NCBI RefSeq assembly: GCF_001457595.1
Contig: NZ_LN831039.1
Location: forward strand, 1,980,001 to 2,012,000
DNA from: Mycolicibacterium smegmatis
GTDB lineage: Bacteria > Actinomycetota > Actinomycetes > Mycobacteriales > Mycobacteriaceae
Reading direction: 5' to 3'
DNA: 32,000 nt
The notes beneath the pieces are model-generated. The model did not search any database, was not told the DNA's origin, and worked only from the letters and a program-made list of their open reading frames with translations. Of the stretch, positions 26,145-32,000 are shown piece by piece (the first letter of the stretch is position 1; every line of letters starts with the position of its first letter). The position numbers and the translations under genes were made by a program.

Positions 26145-26414
26145 TCACACCTCTTCGACGTGCTCGTCGCGCAACGCCCACCCCAGCAGATAACCCAGGG
26201 CGTAGCCGAGCACAGGAAAACCGAACAGCGGCAGGGAACTCACCGCGCCGACGGTGGCCGGCACGAATTGTCCGCGCACGATCGAGTTCCCGCGTCGACC
26301 GTCGCTGATACCTGCGATGAACAGACCGCCACTCAGCAGAGTCGTGCCTACCACGATGGGCGCGGCCCACCCGCCGAGGTACGCGCCAAGGGCAATCTGG
26401 CGAGTCCCCGATAC
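26145..26414 (-). pseudogene. 3' fragment of a membrane-protein gene interrupted by an IS element
   Basis: The hydrophobic, Gly-rich ORF (...GTRQIALGAYLGGWAAPIVVGTTLLSGGLFIAG...LPLFGFPVLGYALGYLLGWAL) has its apparent GTG start inside the IS terminal repeat. The frame continues in phase with the fragment at 27663-27920. Confidence 0.6.
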
Positions 26415-26456
26415 TGAGTCCACCCGGTTCTGGAGTCGGGTTGGTGTGATCCAGTT

Positions 26457-27290
26457 TCAGTTGATGCTGCAGGCCACCGGTGTGTGGGTGCAGCTGCAGA
26501 CGGCAGCGTACTCGGCCGGCGTGCGGTAGCCCAGCGCCGAGTGTCGGTGTCGGTGGTTGTGCTCGTCTTTGAAGTCGCCGATGACCACCCGGGCCTCGAG
26601 CAGGGTGTTCCAGTGGTTGCGGTTCAGGCACTCCTTGCGCAGTCGGTTGTTGAACGATTCGATGTGTCCGTTGTTCCACGGCGTCCCTGGCGGAATATAG
26701 GACATACCGATCCTTCCGTCGCAAAACTGTTGCAGTGCTTGAGAAATGAATTCCGGCCCGTTGTCCATCCGCAGCACCCTCGGCGGCCCACCCGCCGCGA
26801 CGAACACCTTCTTCAACTCCTCAACGAGTCGGTCGGCGGTGATCGAGCGTTCGACGATGTTGAGCAGCGAGACGCGGGTGTGTTCGTCGATCATCGAGGC
26901 GATCTTGATGGCCTTGCCGTCGATGGTGGAATCGAACTGGAAGTCGATCGCCCACACCACGTTCGGGGCGTCGGCCTCGATCGGCGGGATGGAGGACACC
27001 CCGGCCCGCTTACGCGGACTGTGCACCCGCACCTGCAGGCCCTCCTCGCGCCACAGCCGGTGGATCTTCTTCTTGTTGACCTCACGGCGTTCGTCGTAGC
27101 GCAGCGCTGCCCAGGCACGTCGGAACCCATGGCAGGGGTGTTTGGTGGCGTAGGAACGCAGCCAGCCCCGCATCTCAGCATCGGGATCAGCGGGGGTCTC
27201 CGCCAGAGGGAGGCGACGGCAGGTGGAGCGGGCCAGCCCAACGGCTTTGCAGGCCAGCCGTTCCGACATGCCCATCGTGGTGGTGAGCAT
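26457..27290 (-). CDS. IS3-family transposase OrfB (DDE/rve integrase core), probably expressed as an OrfAB fusion by -1 frameshifting
   Basis: The rve-type core contains WAIDFQFD, LRMDNGPEF and PWNNGHIESFNNRLRKE. The slippery heptamer G_GGA_AAA at 27326-27332 sits at the end of orfA. The -1 frame reads GK-ILSPAAKRRAVDMLTTTMGMSERLAC. Confidence 0.9.
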   Translation of the reverse strand: MLTTTMGMSERLACKAVGLARSTCRRLPLAETPADPDAEMRGWLRSYATKHPCHGFRRAWAALRYDERREVNKKKIHRLWREEGLQVRVHSPRKRAGVSSIPPIEADAPNVVWAIDFQFDSTIDGKAIKIASMIDEHTRVSLLNIVERSITADRLVEELKKVFVAAGGPPRVLRMDNGPEFISQALQQFCDGRIGMSYIPPGTPWNNGHIESFNNRLRKECLNRNHWNTLLEARVVIGDFKDEHNHRHRHSALGYRTPAEYAAVCSCTHTPVACSIN

Positions 27291-27319
27291 GTCGACGGCG
27301 CGGCGCTTGGCAGCTGGGC

Positions 27320-27601
27320 TCAGAATTTTCCCTTCGCGACCTCCCGCAGGGCGTCTTTGACCAGCTCGGCCTCGGCGAGCAGTCGCTTGAGTCGGGCGTT
27401 CTGCTCGCGCAGTTCCTTGAGTTCTTTGGCGGCGTCGGTGTCCATGCCGCCGTAGGAGCGGCGCCAGTTGTACAGCGTCGCGGGCGAGACCTCGAGTTCG
27501 GCGGCGATTTCCTCGCCGGTCTTGCCTTCCGCGGTCAGTTCGTCCGCACGGCGCAGTTTGCGCACGATGTCTTCTGCAGAGTGCCGCTTCCGACCAGCCA
27601 T
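27320..27601 (-). CDS. IS3-family transposase OrfA (HTH plus leucine zipper)
   Basis: MAGRKRHSAEDIVRKLRRADELTAEGKTGEEIAAELEVSPATLYNWRRSYGGMDTDAAKELKELREQNARLKRLLAEAEL is the typical IS3 OrfA pattern. Confidence 0.9.
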   Translation of the reverse strand: MAGRKRHSAEDIVRKLRRADELTAEGKTGEEIAAELEVSPATLYNWRRSYGGMDTDAAKELKELREQNARLKRLLAEAELVKDALREVAKGKF

Positions 27602-27662
27602 ACGTTCATCGTCCCTTCTCGCCCGACATCGGGCTACAGGACTCTAGAACTGGTTGGACTCA

Positions 27663-27920
27663 ATCAGTGGGAACACGCCAAATCAACGCGGCAAAAACGG
27701 TCATCAGCCACCAGAACTTCGGGGCCGTCATGCTGCCGTAGCCGTTCTCGACTGTCATCACTTGGCGCAGTGGTCGATCGGTGTCGCCGTCGGAGTCTTC
27801 CGGCAGATCCCTCGGTTCGTAAGTCCCCAAGCTGATCACGCGCCCGCCGACCACCAGGTACGGGGTGCGGACGAAGGCATAGAACACCGGGATGATCACC
27901 ACGATCGGAATCAGCCACAC
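27663..27920 (-). pseudogene. 5' fragment of the IS-interrupted membrane-protein gene
   Basis: GTG 27920 opens VWLIPIVVIIPVFYAFV..., an acidic loop and a second TM, KFWWLMTVFAALIW. The frame runs into the IS end, where the first stop (TGA 27660-27662) lies inside the IS repeat. Confidence 0.55.
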
Positions 27921-27975
27921 AACGGTGTCCCAGCCGCGGAACGGAATTTGTCAAGGTGTTTGAGTCCAGTGGGTG

Positions 27976-28989
27976 TTAAGCGGCTTCCGTTTCGGTCTCC
28001 TGTTCGGCCGGTTTGGGTGGGTTGATCGCCGCGGATTCAGGTAGGTCGATGACCTTGGGTGCGGTGTCGCGGCCGAATCGGCGTGGGTGGCGCGCCCTGG
28101 CGTCGGCGAGCACGGCTCGGCGCTGGGTGTCTTTCCCGCCGGCGAGGCCGTAGAACACATCGGCGGGTGTGTGCAGCCCGATGCCGCTGTGGCGGTGTTC
28201 ATGGTTGTACCACTGCACGAATCGGTCCATGAAATCCCTCGCGTGATGGATGGATTCGAAGCGTTCCGGGAACGCCGGCGCATACTTCAAGGTCTTGAAC
28301 CAGGACTCGCTGTAGGGGTTGTCGTTGGATACCTTGGGCCGCGAATGCGAGCGGATGACGCCCAGATCCGAGAGCAGTCCGGCGACGGTGTTGCTGGTCA
28401 TCGAGGTGCCCCGATCAGTGTGCACGACGTGTGGGATGCCGTAGGTGCCGAAGATCTGTTCCATCATCTCCTTGGCCAGCTGGCCGCATTCGCGGGCGTG
28501 CACATGGACCCCGACGATGTAACGCGAGTAAATGTCGATCATCACGTAGGCGTCGTAGTAGACCCCTTTGACCGGGCCGGCCAGTTTGGTGATGTCCCAC
28601 GAATACACCTGCCGCGGCGCGGTGGCCACCAGTTCCGGGCAGACCGCTTTGCGGTGCCGGGCCAGCCGACGGCGCTCCTTGACCAGCTTGTTGGCATTGA
28701 GGACGCGGTACATCGTCGACACCGAACACAGGTAGCTGCCTTCATCGAGCAACGTGGCCCACACCTGCATCGGCGCGGCATCGACGAACCGGGCACTGTT
28801 GAGCACCTCAACCACCCGGGTGCATTCGGACTCGGTGAGCTTGTTGACCGGGACCGGTCGTGGTGCCCGATCGGCAGGCGCCGGCGCGGGTTTGGCGCGT
28901 CGAGTGGCCGTCGAGCGGTGCATGCCGGTCACCTCCGCGGCCTTGCGGGTCGGAATCTGGATATCCCGCAGATCGTTGTAGGCATCCAT
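27976..28989 (-). CDS. IS3-family transposase OrfB (DDE/rve integrase core)
   Basis: YSWDITKL...YDAYVMIDIYSRYIVG...HTDRGTSMTS...NPYSESWFKTLKY...WYNHEHRHSGIG is a DDE(35)E-type rve domain. Its frame is open 36 codons upstream into orfA. The slippery heptamer G_GGA_AAA lies at 29055-29061. Confidence 0.9.
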   Translation of the reverse strand: MDAYNDLRDIQIPTRKAAEVTGMHRSTATRRAKPAPAPADRAPRPVPVNKLTESECTRVVEVLNSARFVDAAPMQVWATLLDEGSYLCSVSTMYRVLNANKLVKERRRLARHRKAVCPELVATAPRQVYSWDITKLAGPVKGVYYDAYVMIDIYSRYIVGVHVHARECGQLAKEMMEQIFGTYGIPHVVHTDRGTSMTSNTVAGLLSDLGVIRSHSRPKVSNDNPYSESWFKTLKYAPAFPERFESIHHARDFMDRFVQWYNHEHRHSGIGLHTPADVFYGLAGGKDTQRRAVLADARARHPRRFGRDTAPKVIDLPESAAINPPKPAEQETETEAA

Positions 28990-29417
28990 CAGCGCTTGGT
29001 CGGCGGCGTGTCGGTGTCCGCGCTCTCGGAGAGAGACTCCAAGAGCGCGTGTGCTTTTCCCATGATCCCCAGGGCAGCCTCGGTGGTCGCCAGCCGATTA
29101 TTGGCCTGGGCGAGTTCCTTTTTCAGGCGGGCGATCTCGGCCTGCTCGCGGGTGAGTTTACCGACCTTCTCCCCAGGTGCCTTGCCTTCCAACACCCCAG
29201 CATCGCGTTGTTTGCGCCACTCGGCGATCTGCGAGGAATACAACCCCTCACCGCGCAGGTACGCCCCACCATCGTTGGTCGTACAGGCCTGCTCATAGGC
29301 ATCCAGGTGGGCCAGCTTCTGCGCCGGAGAAATCGAGCGCCGCCGGCGCGGGCCATCAGATCGCGGTGAAGGTGCCACCGCTCCAGTCTCGCGCACAGCA
29401 GCCATCGTCGTCGTCAT
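28989..29417 (-). CDS. IS3-family transposase OrfA
   Basis: 142 aa with a coiled-coil segment, LTREQAEIARLKKELAQANNRLATTEAALGIMGK, containing the frameshift site. Located directly upstream of OrfB. Confidence 0.85.
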   Translation of the reverse strand: MTTTMAAVRETGAVAPSPRSDGPRRRRSISPAQKLAHLDAYEQACTTNDGGAYLRGEGLYSSQIAEWRKQRDAGVLEGKAPGEKVGKLTREQAEIARLKKELAQANNRLATTEAALGIMGKAHALLESLSESADTDTPPTKR

Positions 29418-29452
29418 GGTTCAGGTGATTCCGTTCTCGCCCCGAGATCAAG

Positions 29453-29490
29453 CCAAGTTGCCAAGTTGCTAAGTTGCTAAGTTGCTAAGT
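29453..29490. repeat. 8-bp tandem repeat (CCAAGTTG x2, CTAAGTTG x2, CTAAGT) just inside the right end of the second IS
   Basis: Read directly from the sequence: ccaagttg ccaagttg ctaagttg ctaagttg ctaagt. It lies between the terminal repeat (ends 29503) and the orfA start (29417). Confidence 0.9.
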
Positions 29491-29549: not shown

Positions 29550-29843
29550 TCAGCGCATCAAATACGTGTAGTAATTGCCGATACATTCGAGCGCTTTCGG
29601 GGAGAGTTCGGGATGCCTCGCATGCATCTCTGCCTCGACGAAATCGCCGGCGTCGTTGAGGGTCATGTGAGACCAGTCAGGACGGAGGCTCATGGCTTCG
29701 TCGAGTAGTTCGCGAACGAGGGCTCTCGCAGCCTGCGCGGATTGGGTGCCGTAGAAAGCGTCGAACTCGGTGTCATTCTTACCCGGGTAATGCTTGAGGT
29801 AGAGCGTGAGTGCCTCGCTCGCATCAATGTCGATGCCGGTCAC
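29550..29843 (-). CDS. Small hypothetical protein, third gene of the low-GC operon (candidate immunity/accessory protein)
   Basis: 97 aa. GTG 29843 lies 4 nt after AGGAGGA. Acidic, predicted helical, with no family I recognise. Begins 36 nt downstream of the previous gene. Confidence 0.65.
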   Translation of the reverse strand: MTGIDIDASEALTLYLKHYPGKNDTEFDAFYGTQSAQAARALVRELLDEAMSLRPDWSHMTLNDAGDFVEAEMHARHPELSPKALECIGNYYTYLMR

Positions 29844-29879
29844 GATGTCCTCCTGCGGAGCAAAGAAAGAAGAGAGCCG

Positions 29880-30629
29880 TCAGATTACGTCACGTCCGAG
29901 CAATATCCAGTCGTCAGCTTCATTGACGACTCGAACTCCGGGTATATCCGGGTTGCTCTTGATCATGTTTACTAGAGCGTCCCAAGTGATGCCGCCGTAG
30001 GAGATACCGGGGCGGTTTCGCGTCGTGTAGGTCAGCACCCATCCGGCCCGTCCGGCTGCCGACGAAGTCACAATGTCCGGCTGTCCCGCGTTGGCACCGT
30101 CCTTCAGGTGGAGGTACAGCTCTCGTCCACGAAGGTGAGTTATTGCTGATCCGTACCAACCGTCTGATGTCATTTCTGCAGCATCCGAGATCACTCTCTC
30201 GAGGTCGTCGGCTACCACCAGTGGATTGGGGGTTCGGTCTGCCTCGGGTGTGGAAAGGTCGGCCAGGATGACAGGGAATTGGACGCGCGGGATCGCAACA
30301 GTTTCGTTTCTCATGTTCGCGACGACGAGCCAGTCTGGGCGTACGGTTTCGTAGGCCGCCTTCAGGATGTTCGACCATTGCGAGGCGACGAAACGATCGG
30401 GAAGATCGGGATGGCGTCTCGATGTGTAAACGACCATCGCCGAACTGTCATCGTCCAGTTTGCGCAACCGCGTGGACAGGACACGGTTGCCGTCGATCTC
30501 CCGCTCGGTGGCGACGTAGTACAGCGTCACACCATCGAGTGCTCGAAACAACTCCAATCGAGCACGACCGTCGCCGGTGTCCTGGGCGGCCGAGGAGAAT
30601 ATTCGCGCGCGCTGGTCTTTATCGATCAC
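29880..30629 (-). CDS. Hypothetical protein with two tandem homologous modules, second gene of the low-GC operon (candidate immunity protein; faint SseB-like pattern)
   Basis: 249 aa. GTG 30629 lies 7 nt after GAGGA. The internal repeat pairs AMVVYTSRRHPD...SQWSNILKAAYETVRPDWLVVANMRNETVAIPR with WVLTYTTRNRPG...ITWDALVNMIKSNPDIPGVRVVNEADDWILLGR. Confidence 0.7.
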   Translation of the reverse strand: MIDKDQRARIFSSAAQDTGDGRARLELFRALDGVTLYYVATEREIDGNRVLSTRLRKLDDDSSAMVVYTSRRHPDLPDRFVASQWSNILKAAYETVRPDWLVVANMRNETVAIPRVQFPVILADLSTPEADRTPNPLVVADDLERVISDAAEMTSDGWYGSAITHLRGRELYLHLKDGANAGQPDIVTSSAAGRAGWVLTYTTRNRPGISYGGITWDALVNMIKSNPDIPGVRVVNEADDWILLGRDVI

Positions 30630-30703
30630 TGTGAGGTCCTCGGAGTCGGTTGTCGATCGGTAGTCCGGAGAACAAAGGCGACAGGTAGGTGTTCGGGCAT
30701 GGC

Positions 30704-32000
30704 TTACCAGTCATCATCGCCGAGGTTTTCAGGTTCAGGCCAGGGATACTTCTCAATGAAATCGTAGGTGTCCTGGTGGTAGATCCCGTGGACGTCGAAA
30801 ACTCTGTGGTTCCAGGAACCGAGGCACGCCACGAAGTCAACCGCTCCCATGTTCGGCTGTAGAAGGTCACTGAGTGTTGTCGCTCGATCAACCGTGTGCG
30901 GAGTACCTACAATGTTCATGTCGTCGGGCGGCAAAAGTGTGTAGTTGGGCATCGTTTCGCCTGGGTAGTACGTCTTCTTGAAGACGCGGGAGGTGTCCCC
31001 ACCCGACTCGATGAGATTCCCCAGCGACTGCGTGATCGGAGAACCATGTTCGCCGTACACCGTCACGGATGTGTCTGCGGGGACGGTGAACGTTCCATCG
31101 CCGCTGTGGTAATCACCATGCCCGCTTATCTTGTAGCGGCCGTCTGGCCCGACGGCGTTCTCGCGCGGACCGTCGTCGTCGCTGTAGCCACGATCATCGC
31201 CCCGCTGTTGATCGGTGTCGTCCCGCCAGCTATGGCTTGGCTCTGCGCGCACATCCGCGTCAGGCTTGTTCGATGCTCGATCGATTGAATCCTGATCTGT
31301 ATCCCGAAGAGTACGACTATCTGTCTCCGAAGTGAGTCCGTCGTGTCTTGCGGTTGGTTCCATCTGGCCATTCGGCGCAGGACCATCGGCAGATGTCGTT
31401 CTGTGGAACAACTCGGTTGCCCTGCCCGTGTCCGGGTCGATCTGGACAATTCGAGTGACATTCGGGTTATCCATCAGACGTGGAATCTCGACCGTCTGCC
31501 AGATGTTGCCTGGCCGAAGGTCGCTGCCCACGATCGCCGTAACGTCGCCGCGAGCATTCTCAGCATATGCCGCCGAAGCGTCTTCCCAGAACCTGACTGA
31601 TTCGGGATCGTGACGGTTCCATGCGGGCAACGGATGCACGCCGTTGCGCTCAAGCGTCATCTCGAGCGTTGTCCCGTTCGAGCCCTCCGCAATTCGCTCG
31701 GCAATTCCAGAGCCGTCCGGTCCTACGCCGACCCCGTTCGCGTCGCGTCCTGACCAATAGTGAGCCGAATCAGGTTCTGTTCTTGTCAGACGAAGGAGTT
31801 CGTCATAAGACGGCAGGCTGCCCGGAACGTAGTGGCCATTCTCATCGAGCATCGGGTTGTAGTCGAGATCTGACTTTGCAGGATCCGTGAATGCGTCGCC
31901 GTCGTGCACAGGCGGCTCCAGCCCACTGGAGTCGTGCGGTGGTTCGGGTTTCGGGGGTGGGGAGTTGTGGTGAGAATCGGACGGCGGCACAGACGAACCC
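30704..32000 (-). CDS. Multidomain putative secreted toxin (5' end outside the window): Pro-rich linker, ADP-ribosyl cyclase/CD38-like domain, acidic linker, C-terminal His/Cys domain
   Basis: The frame is open to the window edge; GTG 31990 is only the ORF finder's start. Residues about 45-196 carry YWSG, TTLEMTL, RFWEDASAAYAENARGDVTAIVGSD and IWQTVEIPRL, matching the four conserved ADP-ribosyl cyclase/CD38 motifs as I recall them. TAA stop at 30704-30706. Confidence 0.75.
   Translation of the reverse strand, partial: GSSVPPSDSHHNSPPPKPEPPHDSSGLEPPVHDGDAFTDPAKSDLDYNPMLDENGHYVPGSLPSYDELLRLTRTEPDSAHYWSGRDANGVGVGPDGSGIAERIAEGSNGTTLEMTLERNGVHPLPAWNRHDPESVRFWEDASAAYAENARGDVTAIVGSDLRPGNIWQTVEIPRLMDNPNVTRIVQIDPDTGRATELFHRTTSADGPAPNGQMEPTARHDGLTSETDSRTLRDTDQDSIDRASNKPDADVRAEPSHSWRDDTDQQRGDDRGYSDDDGPRENAVGPDGRYKISGHGDYHSGDGTFTVPADTSVTVYGEHGSPITQSLGNLIESGGDTSRVFKKTYYPGETMPNYTLLPPDDMNIVGTPHTVDRATTLSDLLQPNMGAVDFVACLGSWNHRVFDVHGIYHQDTYDFIEKYPWPEPENLGDDDW

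Follow-up and report, generated by a model that had tools for sequence, protein, structure and literature searches.

What are the three low-GC genes that lie next to two insertion sequence (IS) elements at positions 29550-32000 of a 32,000-nucleotide stretch of the Mycolicibacterium smegmatis genome (contig NZ_LN831039.1), and do the two small genes that follow the large one encode proteins that protect against its product? The whole of this stretch is referred to here as the window. A preliminary description of the window had interpreted the cassette as a polymorphic toxin-immunity locus, in which a modular secreted protein with two effector-like domains is followed by one small immunity gene per domain. 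At the level of sequence, our analysis supports this interpretation as a whole. We consider the cassette to be the payload end of a chromosomal ESX polymorphic toxin operon together with its two immunity genes, and we give this explanation, taken as a whole, a probability of roughly 0.78. The toxin would carry two warheads, an ARC domain and a terminal Stv domain, and the 97-aa and 249-aa proteins encoded downstream are predicted to be the immunity proteins of ARC and of Stv, respectively.

The three open reading frames (ORFs) are co-oriented on the minus strand and are separated by gaps of 74 nt and then 36 nt, exactly as first described. The toxin gene is represented by its 3′ part (30704..>32000), which is open to the window edge, and it is followed by the 249-aa gene (29880-30629) and the 97-aa gene (29550-29843). 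The complete gene was recovered from M. smegmatis genomes (loci L001-L008) and encodes 1265 aa; of this gene, the window carries codons 835-1265 (431 codons) and the stop codon but not the N-terminal 834 codons, and the full translation ends with the window fragment. Residue numbers given below are those of the full-length protein unless the fragment is named. The gene pairs of this cassette recur across dozens of independent loci, and a chance ORF pattern is therefore excluded. No terminator-like site was found on the cassette strand between the three genes, which is consistent with their co-transcription.

The ARC and Stv domains of the toxin

The ARC toxin domain, delimited by phmmer, occupies positions 31400-31828 on the minus strand (residues 892-1034). 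Residues 58-200 of the window fragment match the PDB entries 9OUF (E 2.1e-33) and 9RO8 (E 1.7e-32) over the whole domain, with an identity of approximately 45-50% as judged by eye from the alignment, and the domain also gives a weak match to Pfam PF02267. The first of these entries is Tac1, a type VII-secreted LXG toxin of Streptococcus parasanguinis that kills via the hydrolysis of NAD+ and NADP+, and the second is ARCtox, an ARC toxin carried by a PAAR protein of Pantoea ananatis, which has the same NAD(P)+ glycohydrolase activity. Mutational effects have been reported for W273, E299, W323 and E356 of ARCtox and for E516, W540 and E573 of Tac1, and the mutagenesis-defined residues are all present in the M. 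smegmatis protein as W916, E947, W972 and E1005. Together with W1001, these residues are kept in 15-17 of the 17 ARC copies, which include relatives down to 44% identity. Glu1005 (codon 31487-31489, placed by alignment to Tac1) is found in all 17 copies and is the equivalent of the essential catalytic glutamate, which is E573 in Tac1, E356 in ARCtox and E226 in CD38, and Glu947 (codon 31661-31663, placed in the same manner) is the equivalent of Tac1 E516 and CD38 E146. This second glutamate drives the hydrolysis of the cyclic intermediate in Tac1 and is replaced by alanine in the non-toxic cyclase Nac1. Because E947 is present, the ARC domain of this protein appears to be of the toxin type, and it is predicted to hydrolyse NAD(P)+. 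The domain that the preliminary description called enzyme-like thus belongs to a known toxin family, Tox-ARC/Tac1, and Tox-ARC domains with type VII secretion system (T7SS) delivery through LXG or WXG domains were already catalogued in Actinobacteria by Zhang et al. (2012). At two other loci (L015, 4001-9481, and L014, 631-4796), an internal ARC domain precedes a different C-terminal domain of approximately 230-290 aa with no family assignment.

The two domains are set off by linkers. Upstream of ARC, the end of the Pro/Ser-rich linker is read from the translation at 31829-31999, and the Pro-rich peptide NSPPPKPEPPHDSSGLEPP was found in the toxin fragment as had been claimed. Between ARC and Stv lies an acidic linker rich in D, R, T and S (31145-31399, minus strand, delimited by composition), which contains 17 D, 9 R, 8 T and 8 S; it had been noted before, although its length is 85 aa and not 88 aa.

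The C-terminal domain (30707-31144, minus strand) is the Pfam domain Stv (PF21527), with a score of 76.6 bits against a cut-off of 24.2, and it is the last domain of the protein. H1128 (31118-31120), H1152 (31046-31048) and D1169 are present in 28 of 28 Stv copies, which are 38-59% identical to the copy of the window, and C1226 (30824-30826) is present in 27 of them; the single copy without it is from a truncated locus. The motifs TVYGEHG and DFVACLG are invariant and place the residues in the order His-Gly...Ala-Cys, each pair following a hydrophobic strand. This order is the signature of clan CD (caspase-type) peptidases, and Stv resembles these enzymes at the motif level only. We believe that Stv is probably a second enzymatic toxin and probably a cysteine protease. 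According to the Stv preprint, which is the only paper on Stv, the family was defined from a Shigella small-plasmid gene, and the domain occurs solely at C-termini, including those of Rhs proteins and beside C80 peptidases. The preprint proposed a toxin with a His-Cys dyad similar to that of caspases and of the cysteine protease domain (CPD), and it reported no function and no partner gene. Stv-only toxins, as defined below by the absence of ARC, have no other C-terminal domain. The tail of the Stv domain in the window reads DDDW (30707-30721), and an acidic tail with a terminal Trp, (D/N)DW, is found in six of the six mycobacterial Stv proteins of alignment A1.

Predicted immunity genes and their nested order

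The 97-aa protein is assigned to ARC and the 249-aa protein to Stv because loci with ARC-only toxins carry only the 97-aa family and loci with Stv-only toxins carry only the 249-aa family. This distribution bears out the earlier suggestion of one small gene per domain, and the small partners do recur with homologs of the toxin, both in the Stv-only loci and in six further mycobacterial contexts of ARC. A relative of the 97-aa protein is encoded 4-35 nt after each of the ARC-terminal toxins, namely those of L009, M. kansasii (L017-19), M. frederiksbergense (L043-44), L045 and M. riyadhense (L046-47), whereas relatives of the 249-aa protein are absent from ARC-only loci. Conversely, ARC-free toxins that end in Stv are followed by a relative of the 249-aa protein in 25 of 25 loci and by a relative of the 97-aa protein in none. 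These 25 loci comprise the 22 of 22 obtained from a genome-wide scan for Stv domains together with L010, L011/L012 and L013. The assignment implies that the predicted immunity order is nested: the toxin reads ARC and then Stv, and the genes that follow read Stv partner and then ARC partner.

The 97-aa gene (29550-29843, minus strand) is preceded by the 36-nt spacer (29844-29879), which contains the strong Shine-Dalgarno (SD) sequence AGGAGG at 29849-29854. Its product lacks a signal peptide and belongs to a family of approximately 100 aa that has no Pfam name and contains DW...RHPEL motifs; an exhaustive profile search gave 327 clusters at 50% identity. In six non-mycobacterial metagenome loci, on contigs of 46-62% GC, distant relatives of the 97-aa protein lie 10-25 nt after ARC domains that are fused to Rhs cores or to CdiA/Maf-like pretoxin regions. 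Because these loci repeat the pairing, the link between ARC and the 97-aa family is not limited to mycobacteria. According to Colautti et al., the protein encoded downstream of type VI secretion system (T6SS)-associated ARC toxins is not Imm74, and the 97-aa family may be this "alternative immunity" of T6SS ARC toxins. Two further clusters, P0264 and P0310, were considered as multi-repeat relatives of the 97-aa protein and were rejected as repeat-driven false positives. Orphan copies of the 97-aa gene were observed several kb downstream in mc2155 (L004, 17306-17551) and downstream of an allele with a different payload, described below (L016, 9073-9357), and the strain of the window lacks this orphan region. 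At L015, a module related to the 97-aa family (E 1e-8) forms the end of the second gene downstream of the toxin (385 aa), and the order is again nested.

The 249-aa gene (29880-30629, minus strand) follows the toxin gene after the 74-nt spacer (30630-30703), in which the SD-like sequence GAGGAC (30636-30641) precedes a GTG start; SD sequences before both small ORFs are thus where the preliminary description led us to expect them. The protein, which lacks a signal peptide, is built from a pair of homologous alpha/beta lobes. The internal duplication was detected by HHalign with a probability of 92.8% (E 4e-7), and the AlphaFold2 (AF2) model reaches a predicted local distance difference test (pLDDT) score of 81.6 and has no structural match in the PDB. 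The family is confined to mycobacteria and related Actinomycetota. Weak matches to the N-terminal domain of SseB (PF07179) were found in 8 of 14 family members, the best at E 2.4e-4, and the protein of the window itself gives none; one family member shows EspG-like similarity at E 0.034.

Profile searches had been suggested for each domain and for both small ORFs. They identified ARC and Stv and left the small ORFs without a named immunity family: NCBIfam gave no match for any of the three proteins, and profile searches against PDB sequences gave no match for the Stv domain, the toxin N-terminus, the 249-aa family or the 97-aa family. More distant Stv-ending proteins are followed by a DUF7919 protein (PF25535, E ~5e-27), as observed on a Streptomyces anulatus plasmid (L069, 4471-4797) and on a Ralstonia megaplasmid (L070, 4412-4894). 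The DUF7919 proteins carry the pattern CxxC...HxIExHxYxPP and may represent a second candidate immunity family for Stv.

The 36-nt gap between the small genes is in frame, a detail missing from the preliminary description, so that the two ORFs are split by a single TGA (29880-29882) and 12 codons. In four protein clusters (P0122, P0124, P0125 and P0128), the TGA is replaced by a sense codon and both small proteins are fused into a single polypeptide of 344-359 aa. Elsewhere, the 97-aa protein is joined to the first lobe alone of the 249-aa protein in a form of 220 aa, and fused or joined forms were noted in P0122, P0124, P0125, P0128, P0139 and P0140. We rejected the possibility that the small ORFs are one frameshifted gene, given that split and fused forms recur across genomes and that the second ORF has its own strong SD sequence. 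Zhang et al. (2012) described polyimmunity proteins, in which unrelated immunity domains are fused, and the fusions of the 249-aa and 97-aa proteins match this description, which supports an immunity role for both.

The nested order also points to a history. ARC-only toxins end 2-3 residues past the motif ELF[HK]R, which is the exact start of the acidic linker in the present toxin, and L009 represents an ARC-only "before" state at the same chromosomal site. Because of these two observations, the simplest history is that a module consisting of the linker, the Stv domain and the 249-aa gene entered an older ARC toxin gene at its stop codon, ahead of the immunity gene. Such an insertion would have kept both warheads and both antidotes.

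Secretion module, allelic variation and genomic setting

The preliminary description had proposed that the missing N-terminus might carry a WXG-type T7SS domain. In the recovered full-length protein, the N-terminus does match WXG100_2 (PF25547), a WXG100-like helical domain, at E 7e-9, and an approximately 400-aa Pro/Ser-rich linker joins this domain to the payload. Directly upstream of the toxin gene are two WXG100 genes, one encoding a 289-aa protein that matches WXG100 (E 1.9e-20) and also EspC, and the other a 92-aa WXG100 protein (E 2.3e-16). The same layout of WXG100 partners and a helical WXG100-like N-terminus is found in L009-L017 and L043-L045. At one locus, L013 of Mycolicibacterium sp. 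HK-90, a toxin of 1836 aa that combines a glutamine deamidase with Stv adjoins eccE and mycosin (mycP) genes (1-2525); no other locus among those examined showed a physical link to secretion machinery. The toxin gene of M. smegmatis is probably MSMEG_1870. A review gives MSMEG_1870 as the counterpart of M. tuberculosis Rv3903c (CpnT), at 24.5% identity, which agrees with the gene described here. This review was the sole match in a literature search for MSMEG_1868-1872, and no functional description of the locus was found in the literature searched.

That the toxin is polymorphic, as had been proposed, is evident from its homologs. Close homologs keep the N-terminal approximately 800 residues and differ at the C-terminus. 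Among the 120 homologs listed, the N-terminal approximately 440 residues and the linker are shared, and the C-termini are TNT, glutamine deamidase, ADP-ribosyltransferase, ARC or Stv domains; some of these homologs are named "outer membrane channel protein CpnT-like". One assembly carries an alternative allele at the same tmk-mtrAB site. Its DNA is 98% identical to that of the present locus up to codon ~802, beyond which a TNT domain and an Imm61 gene replace ARC-Stv and both small genes. At this allelic break point, which lies approximately 33 codons upstream of (beyond) the window edge, the GC content falls from 0.64-0.75 to 0.55-0.62. Because the drop coincides with the break point, the low-GC stretch can be regarded as an exchangeable cassette. 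An N-terminal trafficking domain, variable C-termini and a co-varying downstream gene, by which polymorphic toxins are recognised from sequence, are thus all found here. Additional predicted immunity genes (Imm35 and Imm61) without an adjacent matching toxin were observed in L012 (9001-9309), L017 (2474-2668) and L043 (5793-6311), and they resemble polyimmunity islands.

In M. smegmatis genomes, the operon adjoins the divergent tmk-mtrA-mtrB-lpqB genes. The window is 99.99% identical to CP082846.1 across 12.1 kb. The exact sequence of the 249-aa protein occurs in complete M. smegmatis genomes, including mc2155 (CP001663.1), and in 673 blocks of the assembly collection, and its M. goodii orthologs are 76-86% identical over their full length. 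Within the window, the GC content of the cassette is 0.586 compared with 0.677 for positions 1-26000, and two IS3-family elements adjoin it, both as originally reported. We mention these elements, which are on the minus strand, for context only. The one that bounds the cassette (27942-29474) contains 142-aa and 337-aa ORFs (27976-29417), and the second (26398-27680) contains 93-aa and 277-aa ORFs (26457-27601). An 8-nt tandem repeat, AAGTTGCT, with 4.5 copies and 96% matches (29455-29490), is located where the IS element, which ends at ~29474, meets the short unique spacer behind the 97-aa gene. The 263 bp between the two IS elements (27681-27943) match a gene situated on the far side of the orphan-immunity region, with 99% identity in mc2155 and 97% in L016. 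This match suggests an IS-associated deletion or rearrangement in the strain of the window.

Mechanism, rival explanations and known systems

According to the mechanism that we propose, the toxin and its WXG100 partners would form a complex that is exported by an ESX system, most likely ESX-4 if EatA and CpnT are taken as a guide. Once in the cytoplasm of the target, ARC would deplete NAD+ and NADP+, and Stv would act as a second enzymatic toxin, probably as a cysteine protease. Within the producer, ARC would be bound and blocked by the 97-aa protein, and Stv by the two-lobed 249-aa protein. Both small proteins are predicted to be cytoplasmic given that they lack a signal peptide, which fits cytoplasmic targets. 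A more specific proposal, for which we put the odds somewhat short of even, is that Stv is an unrecognised enzymatic toxin, probably a protease of the caspase-like type, for which the duplicated 249-aa protein provides a new immunity fold, that it is co-delivered with the NAD(P)+-depleting ARC domain, and that the two warheads were stacked by nested insertion. If this is true, one ESX substrate would hit two unrelated cytoplasmic targets, and resistance would need both immunity modules. Mycobacteria would then also stack warheads via nested cassettes rather than displacing the old one, for which the internal ARC domains of L014 and L015 may be compared.

Several points weigh against the toxin-immunity explanation. 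That the domains are toxic, that ARC is an NADase, that the small proteins bind and neutralise them and that export depends on ESX are predictions from sequence. Only one of five AF2 models of Stv reached a pLDDT of 70, Foldseek gave no match for it in the PDB, and no peptidase family of Pfam matched the domain. The 97-aa family is not detectably related to Imm74 or Imm63, which had earlier been tied to Tox-ARC: no match at E <= 10 was obtained in 38 members or in distant members, and we rejected this identity at the sequence level. Furthermore, several distant members of the 97-aa family have no detectable ARC domain upstream, and L014, in which ARC is combined with another domain, has no relative of the 97-aa protein on its short contig. 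The 249-aa protein has no known immunity fold, and with its weak likeness to SseB and EspG it could be a chaperone. Finally, a link to the ESX-4 regulon is unsupported, as no SigM/ECF-type (extracytoplasmic function) promoter was found upstream of the operon, and pattern matches elsewhere occurred at the chance level.

Four other explanations bear on parts of this interpretation. Stv might be a releasing (auto-processing) cysteine peptidase that frees ARC by cutting the acidic linker, similar to the CPD of MARTX and large clostridial toxins, in which case the 249-aa protein would be an inhibitor of premature processing. The His-Gly...Ala-Cys order and the invariant His and Cys resemble clan CD, the Stv preprint points to a likeness to the MARTX CPD, and Stv is located directly C-terminal of a long flexible linker; moreover, Zhang et al. 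(2012) considered most caspase-like domains of polymorphic toxins to be releasing peptidases. However, 25 Stv-only loci stand against three protein clusters with both ARC and Stv, so that there is usually nothing to release. In addition, Stv always occupies the extreme C-terminus and is followed by a gene of its own, as is characteristic of the tip of a toxin, and in Rhs-Stv proteins it takes the position of the encapsulated toxin. We therefore regard a releasing role as unlikely, and the two roles of Stv are not mutually exclusive. The chaperone alternative, according to which the 249-aa protein keeps the Stv toxin export-competent and has no neutralising activity, appears more improbable still. 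It draws on the SseB and EspG likenesses given above, on the two-lobed, duplicated alpha/beta architecture and on the failure to detect known immunity families in the protein. The presence of the 249-aa gene, however, tracks the C-terminal Stv domain rather than the N-terminal secretion domain, and a relative also follows the glutamine deamidase/Stv toxin of HK-90. In several genomes, its product and the ARC partner form one polypeptide in the manner of polyimmunity proteins, and behind the Stv domains of Streptomyces and Ralstonia its place is taken by the unrelated DUF7919, as is usual for immunity genes.

The target of the toxin is a separate issue. If eukaryotic cells, such as amoebae, other predators or host cells, were the main target, as for CpnT/TNT, the small genes would have no role other than to shield the producer until the toxin is exported. 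The toxin does belong to a CpnT-like family in which MSMEG_1870 is given as the counterpart of Rv3903c, the P. ananatis ARCtox is toxic to both yeast and bacteria, and the anti-host toxin TNT likewise has a self-protecting partner, IFT/Imm61. We nevertheless consider a primarily eukaryotic target doubtful, though a serious candidate: the exchange of cassettes between strains and the orphan copies of the 97-aa gene, both in the strain with the TNT allele and in mc2155, are expected of strain-against-strain conflict, ESX-4-dependent killing between mycobacteria has been shown for EatA, and M. smegmatis is a soil saprophyte. Finally, we regard it as highly improbable that the cassette is a decayed remnant without function beside insertion sequences. 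Two IS elements do adjoin it, its GC content is atypical and the neighbouring orphan-immunity region has been lost in this strain, but the three ORFs are intact and the catalytic residues are conserved, and the exact 249-aa protein in 673 assembly blocks and the full-length M. goodii orthologs at 76-86% identity are not expected of a remnant.

The kind of system to which we assign the cassette is already known in mycobacteria. CpnT/TNT-IFT, with EsxE-EsxF, shares the N-terminal family, the upstream WXG100 genes, an NAD+-destroying C-terminus and a downstream immunity gene, and near-identical strains carry TNT and Imm61 at this very locus. Unlike in CpnT, the predicted NADase of the present toxin has the ARC (CD38-like) fold, which is unrelated to TNT, and the numbers of payload domains and of immunity genes are both two; M. 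smegmatis is a saprophyte, and the target is therefore likely to differ. The Eat loci (EatA-TapA1/TapA2-EatI of M. abscessus, ESX-4) and the prophage PEST cassettes share the order in which WXG100/Tap-like genes precede a toxin with a helical N-terminus and a variable C-terminus, which is followed by immunity, and this type of organisation has been described as widespread and recombining in Mycobacteriales. However, EatA is a periplasm-acting arabinanase with a lipoprotein inhibitor, whereas both partners in the present locus lack a signal peptide and the payload of known type targets a cytoplasmic metabolite. The main texts of the Eat and PEST reports do not mention ARC or Stv payloads, and unlike the PEST cassettes, the present locus is chromosomal, by tmk-mtrAB, and not prophage-borne.

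Outside mycobacteria, Tac1-Tci1 (T7SSb, LXG) and ARCtox-ARCimm (PAAR/T6SS, PANA_2924/2923) have a homologous ARC payload with the same Trp/Glu set and a small downstream gene. The M. smegmatis toxin differs from them in that its N-terminus is WXG100-like (T7SSa/ESX-type) rather than LXG or PAAR, its ARC domain is not terminal but precedes a second domain, and the downstream partner has no detectable Imm74 and belongs to a family that also follows Rhs- and CdiA-type ARC toxins. With the Stv proteins of the preprint (the Shigella small-plasmid Stv, Rhs-Stv and C80-Stv), it has in common the Pfam domain, the extreme C-terminal position and the conserved His and Cys, whereas the dedicated downstream gene and the fusion of Stv behind another toxin domain set it apart. 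The occurrence of several toxin domains in one polypeptide and of fused immunity domains was described by Zhang et al. (2012) for multi-toxin-domain proteins and polyimmunity. In the present case, however, the fused and split forms are alleles of one two-gene unit that are one stop codon apart, and each immunity module is attributable to a single domain of a single toxin. What appears distinctive in this locus is the combination of ARC and Stv in one protein, the nested and sometimes fused pair of predicted immunity genes, and the unnamed families to which these partners belong.

The first demonstration that mycobacteria compete by means of toxins came in 2026, for EatA, and the locus described here is a second, easily tested candidate that resides in M. 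smegmatis, the standard model organism. One of its payloads has a known chemistry, the depletion of NAD(P)+, which is predicted here, and the other, Stv, has elsewhere been linked to the success of Shigella lineages. Stv gains its first candidate immunity partner, which would be the most direct handle on its toxin status and its target. In addition, a family of approximately 100 residues, still unnamed, is found to accompany ARC toxins in T7SS, Rhs and CdiA contexts. If the history proposed above is correct, the split and fused forms of the immunity genes, together with the ARC-only "before" state, document how a two-warhead toxin originated by nested insertion.

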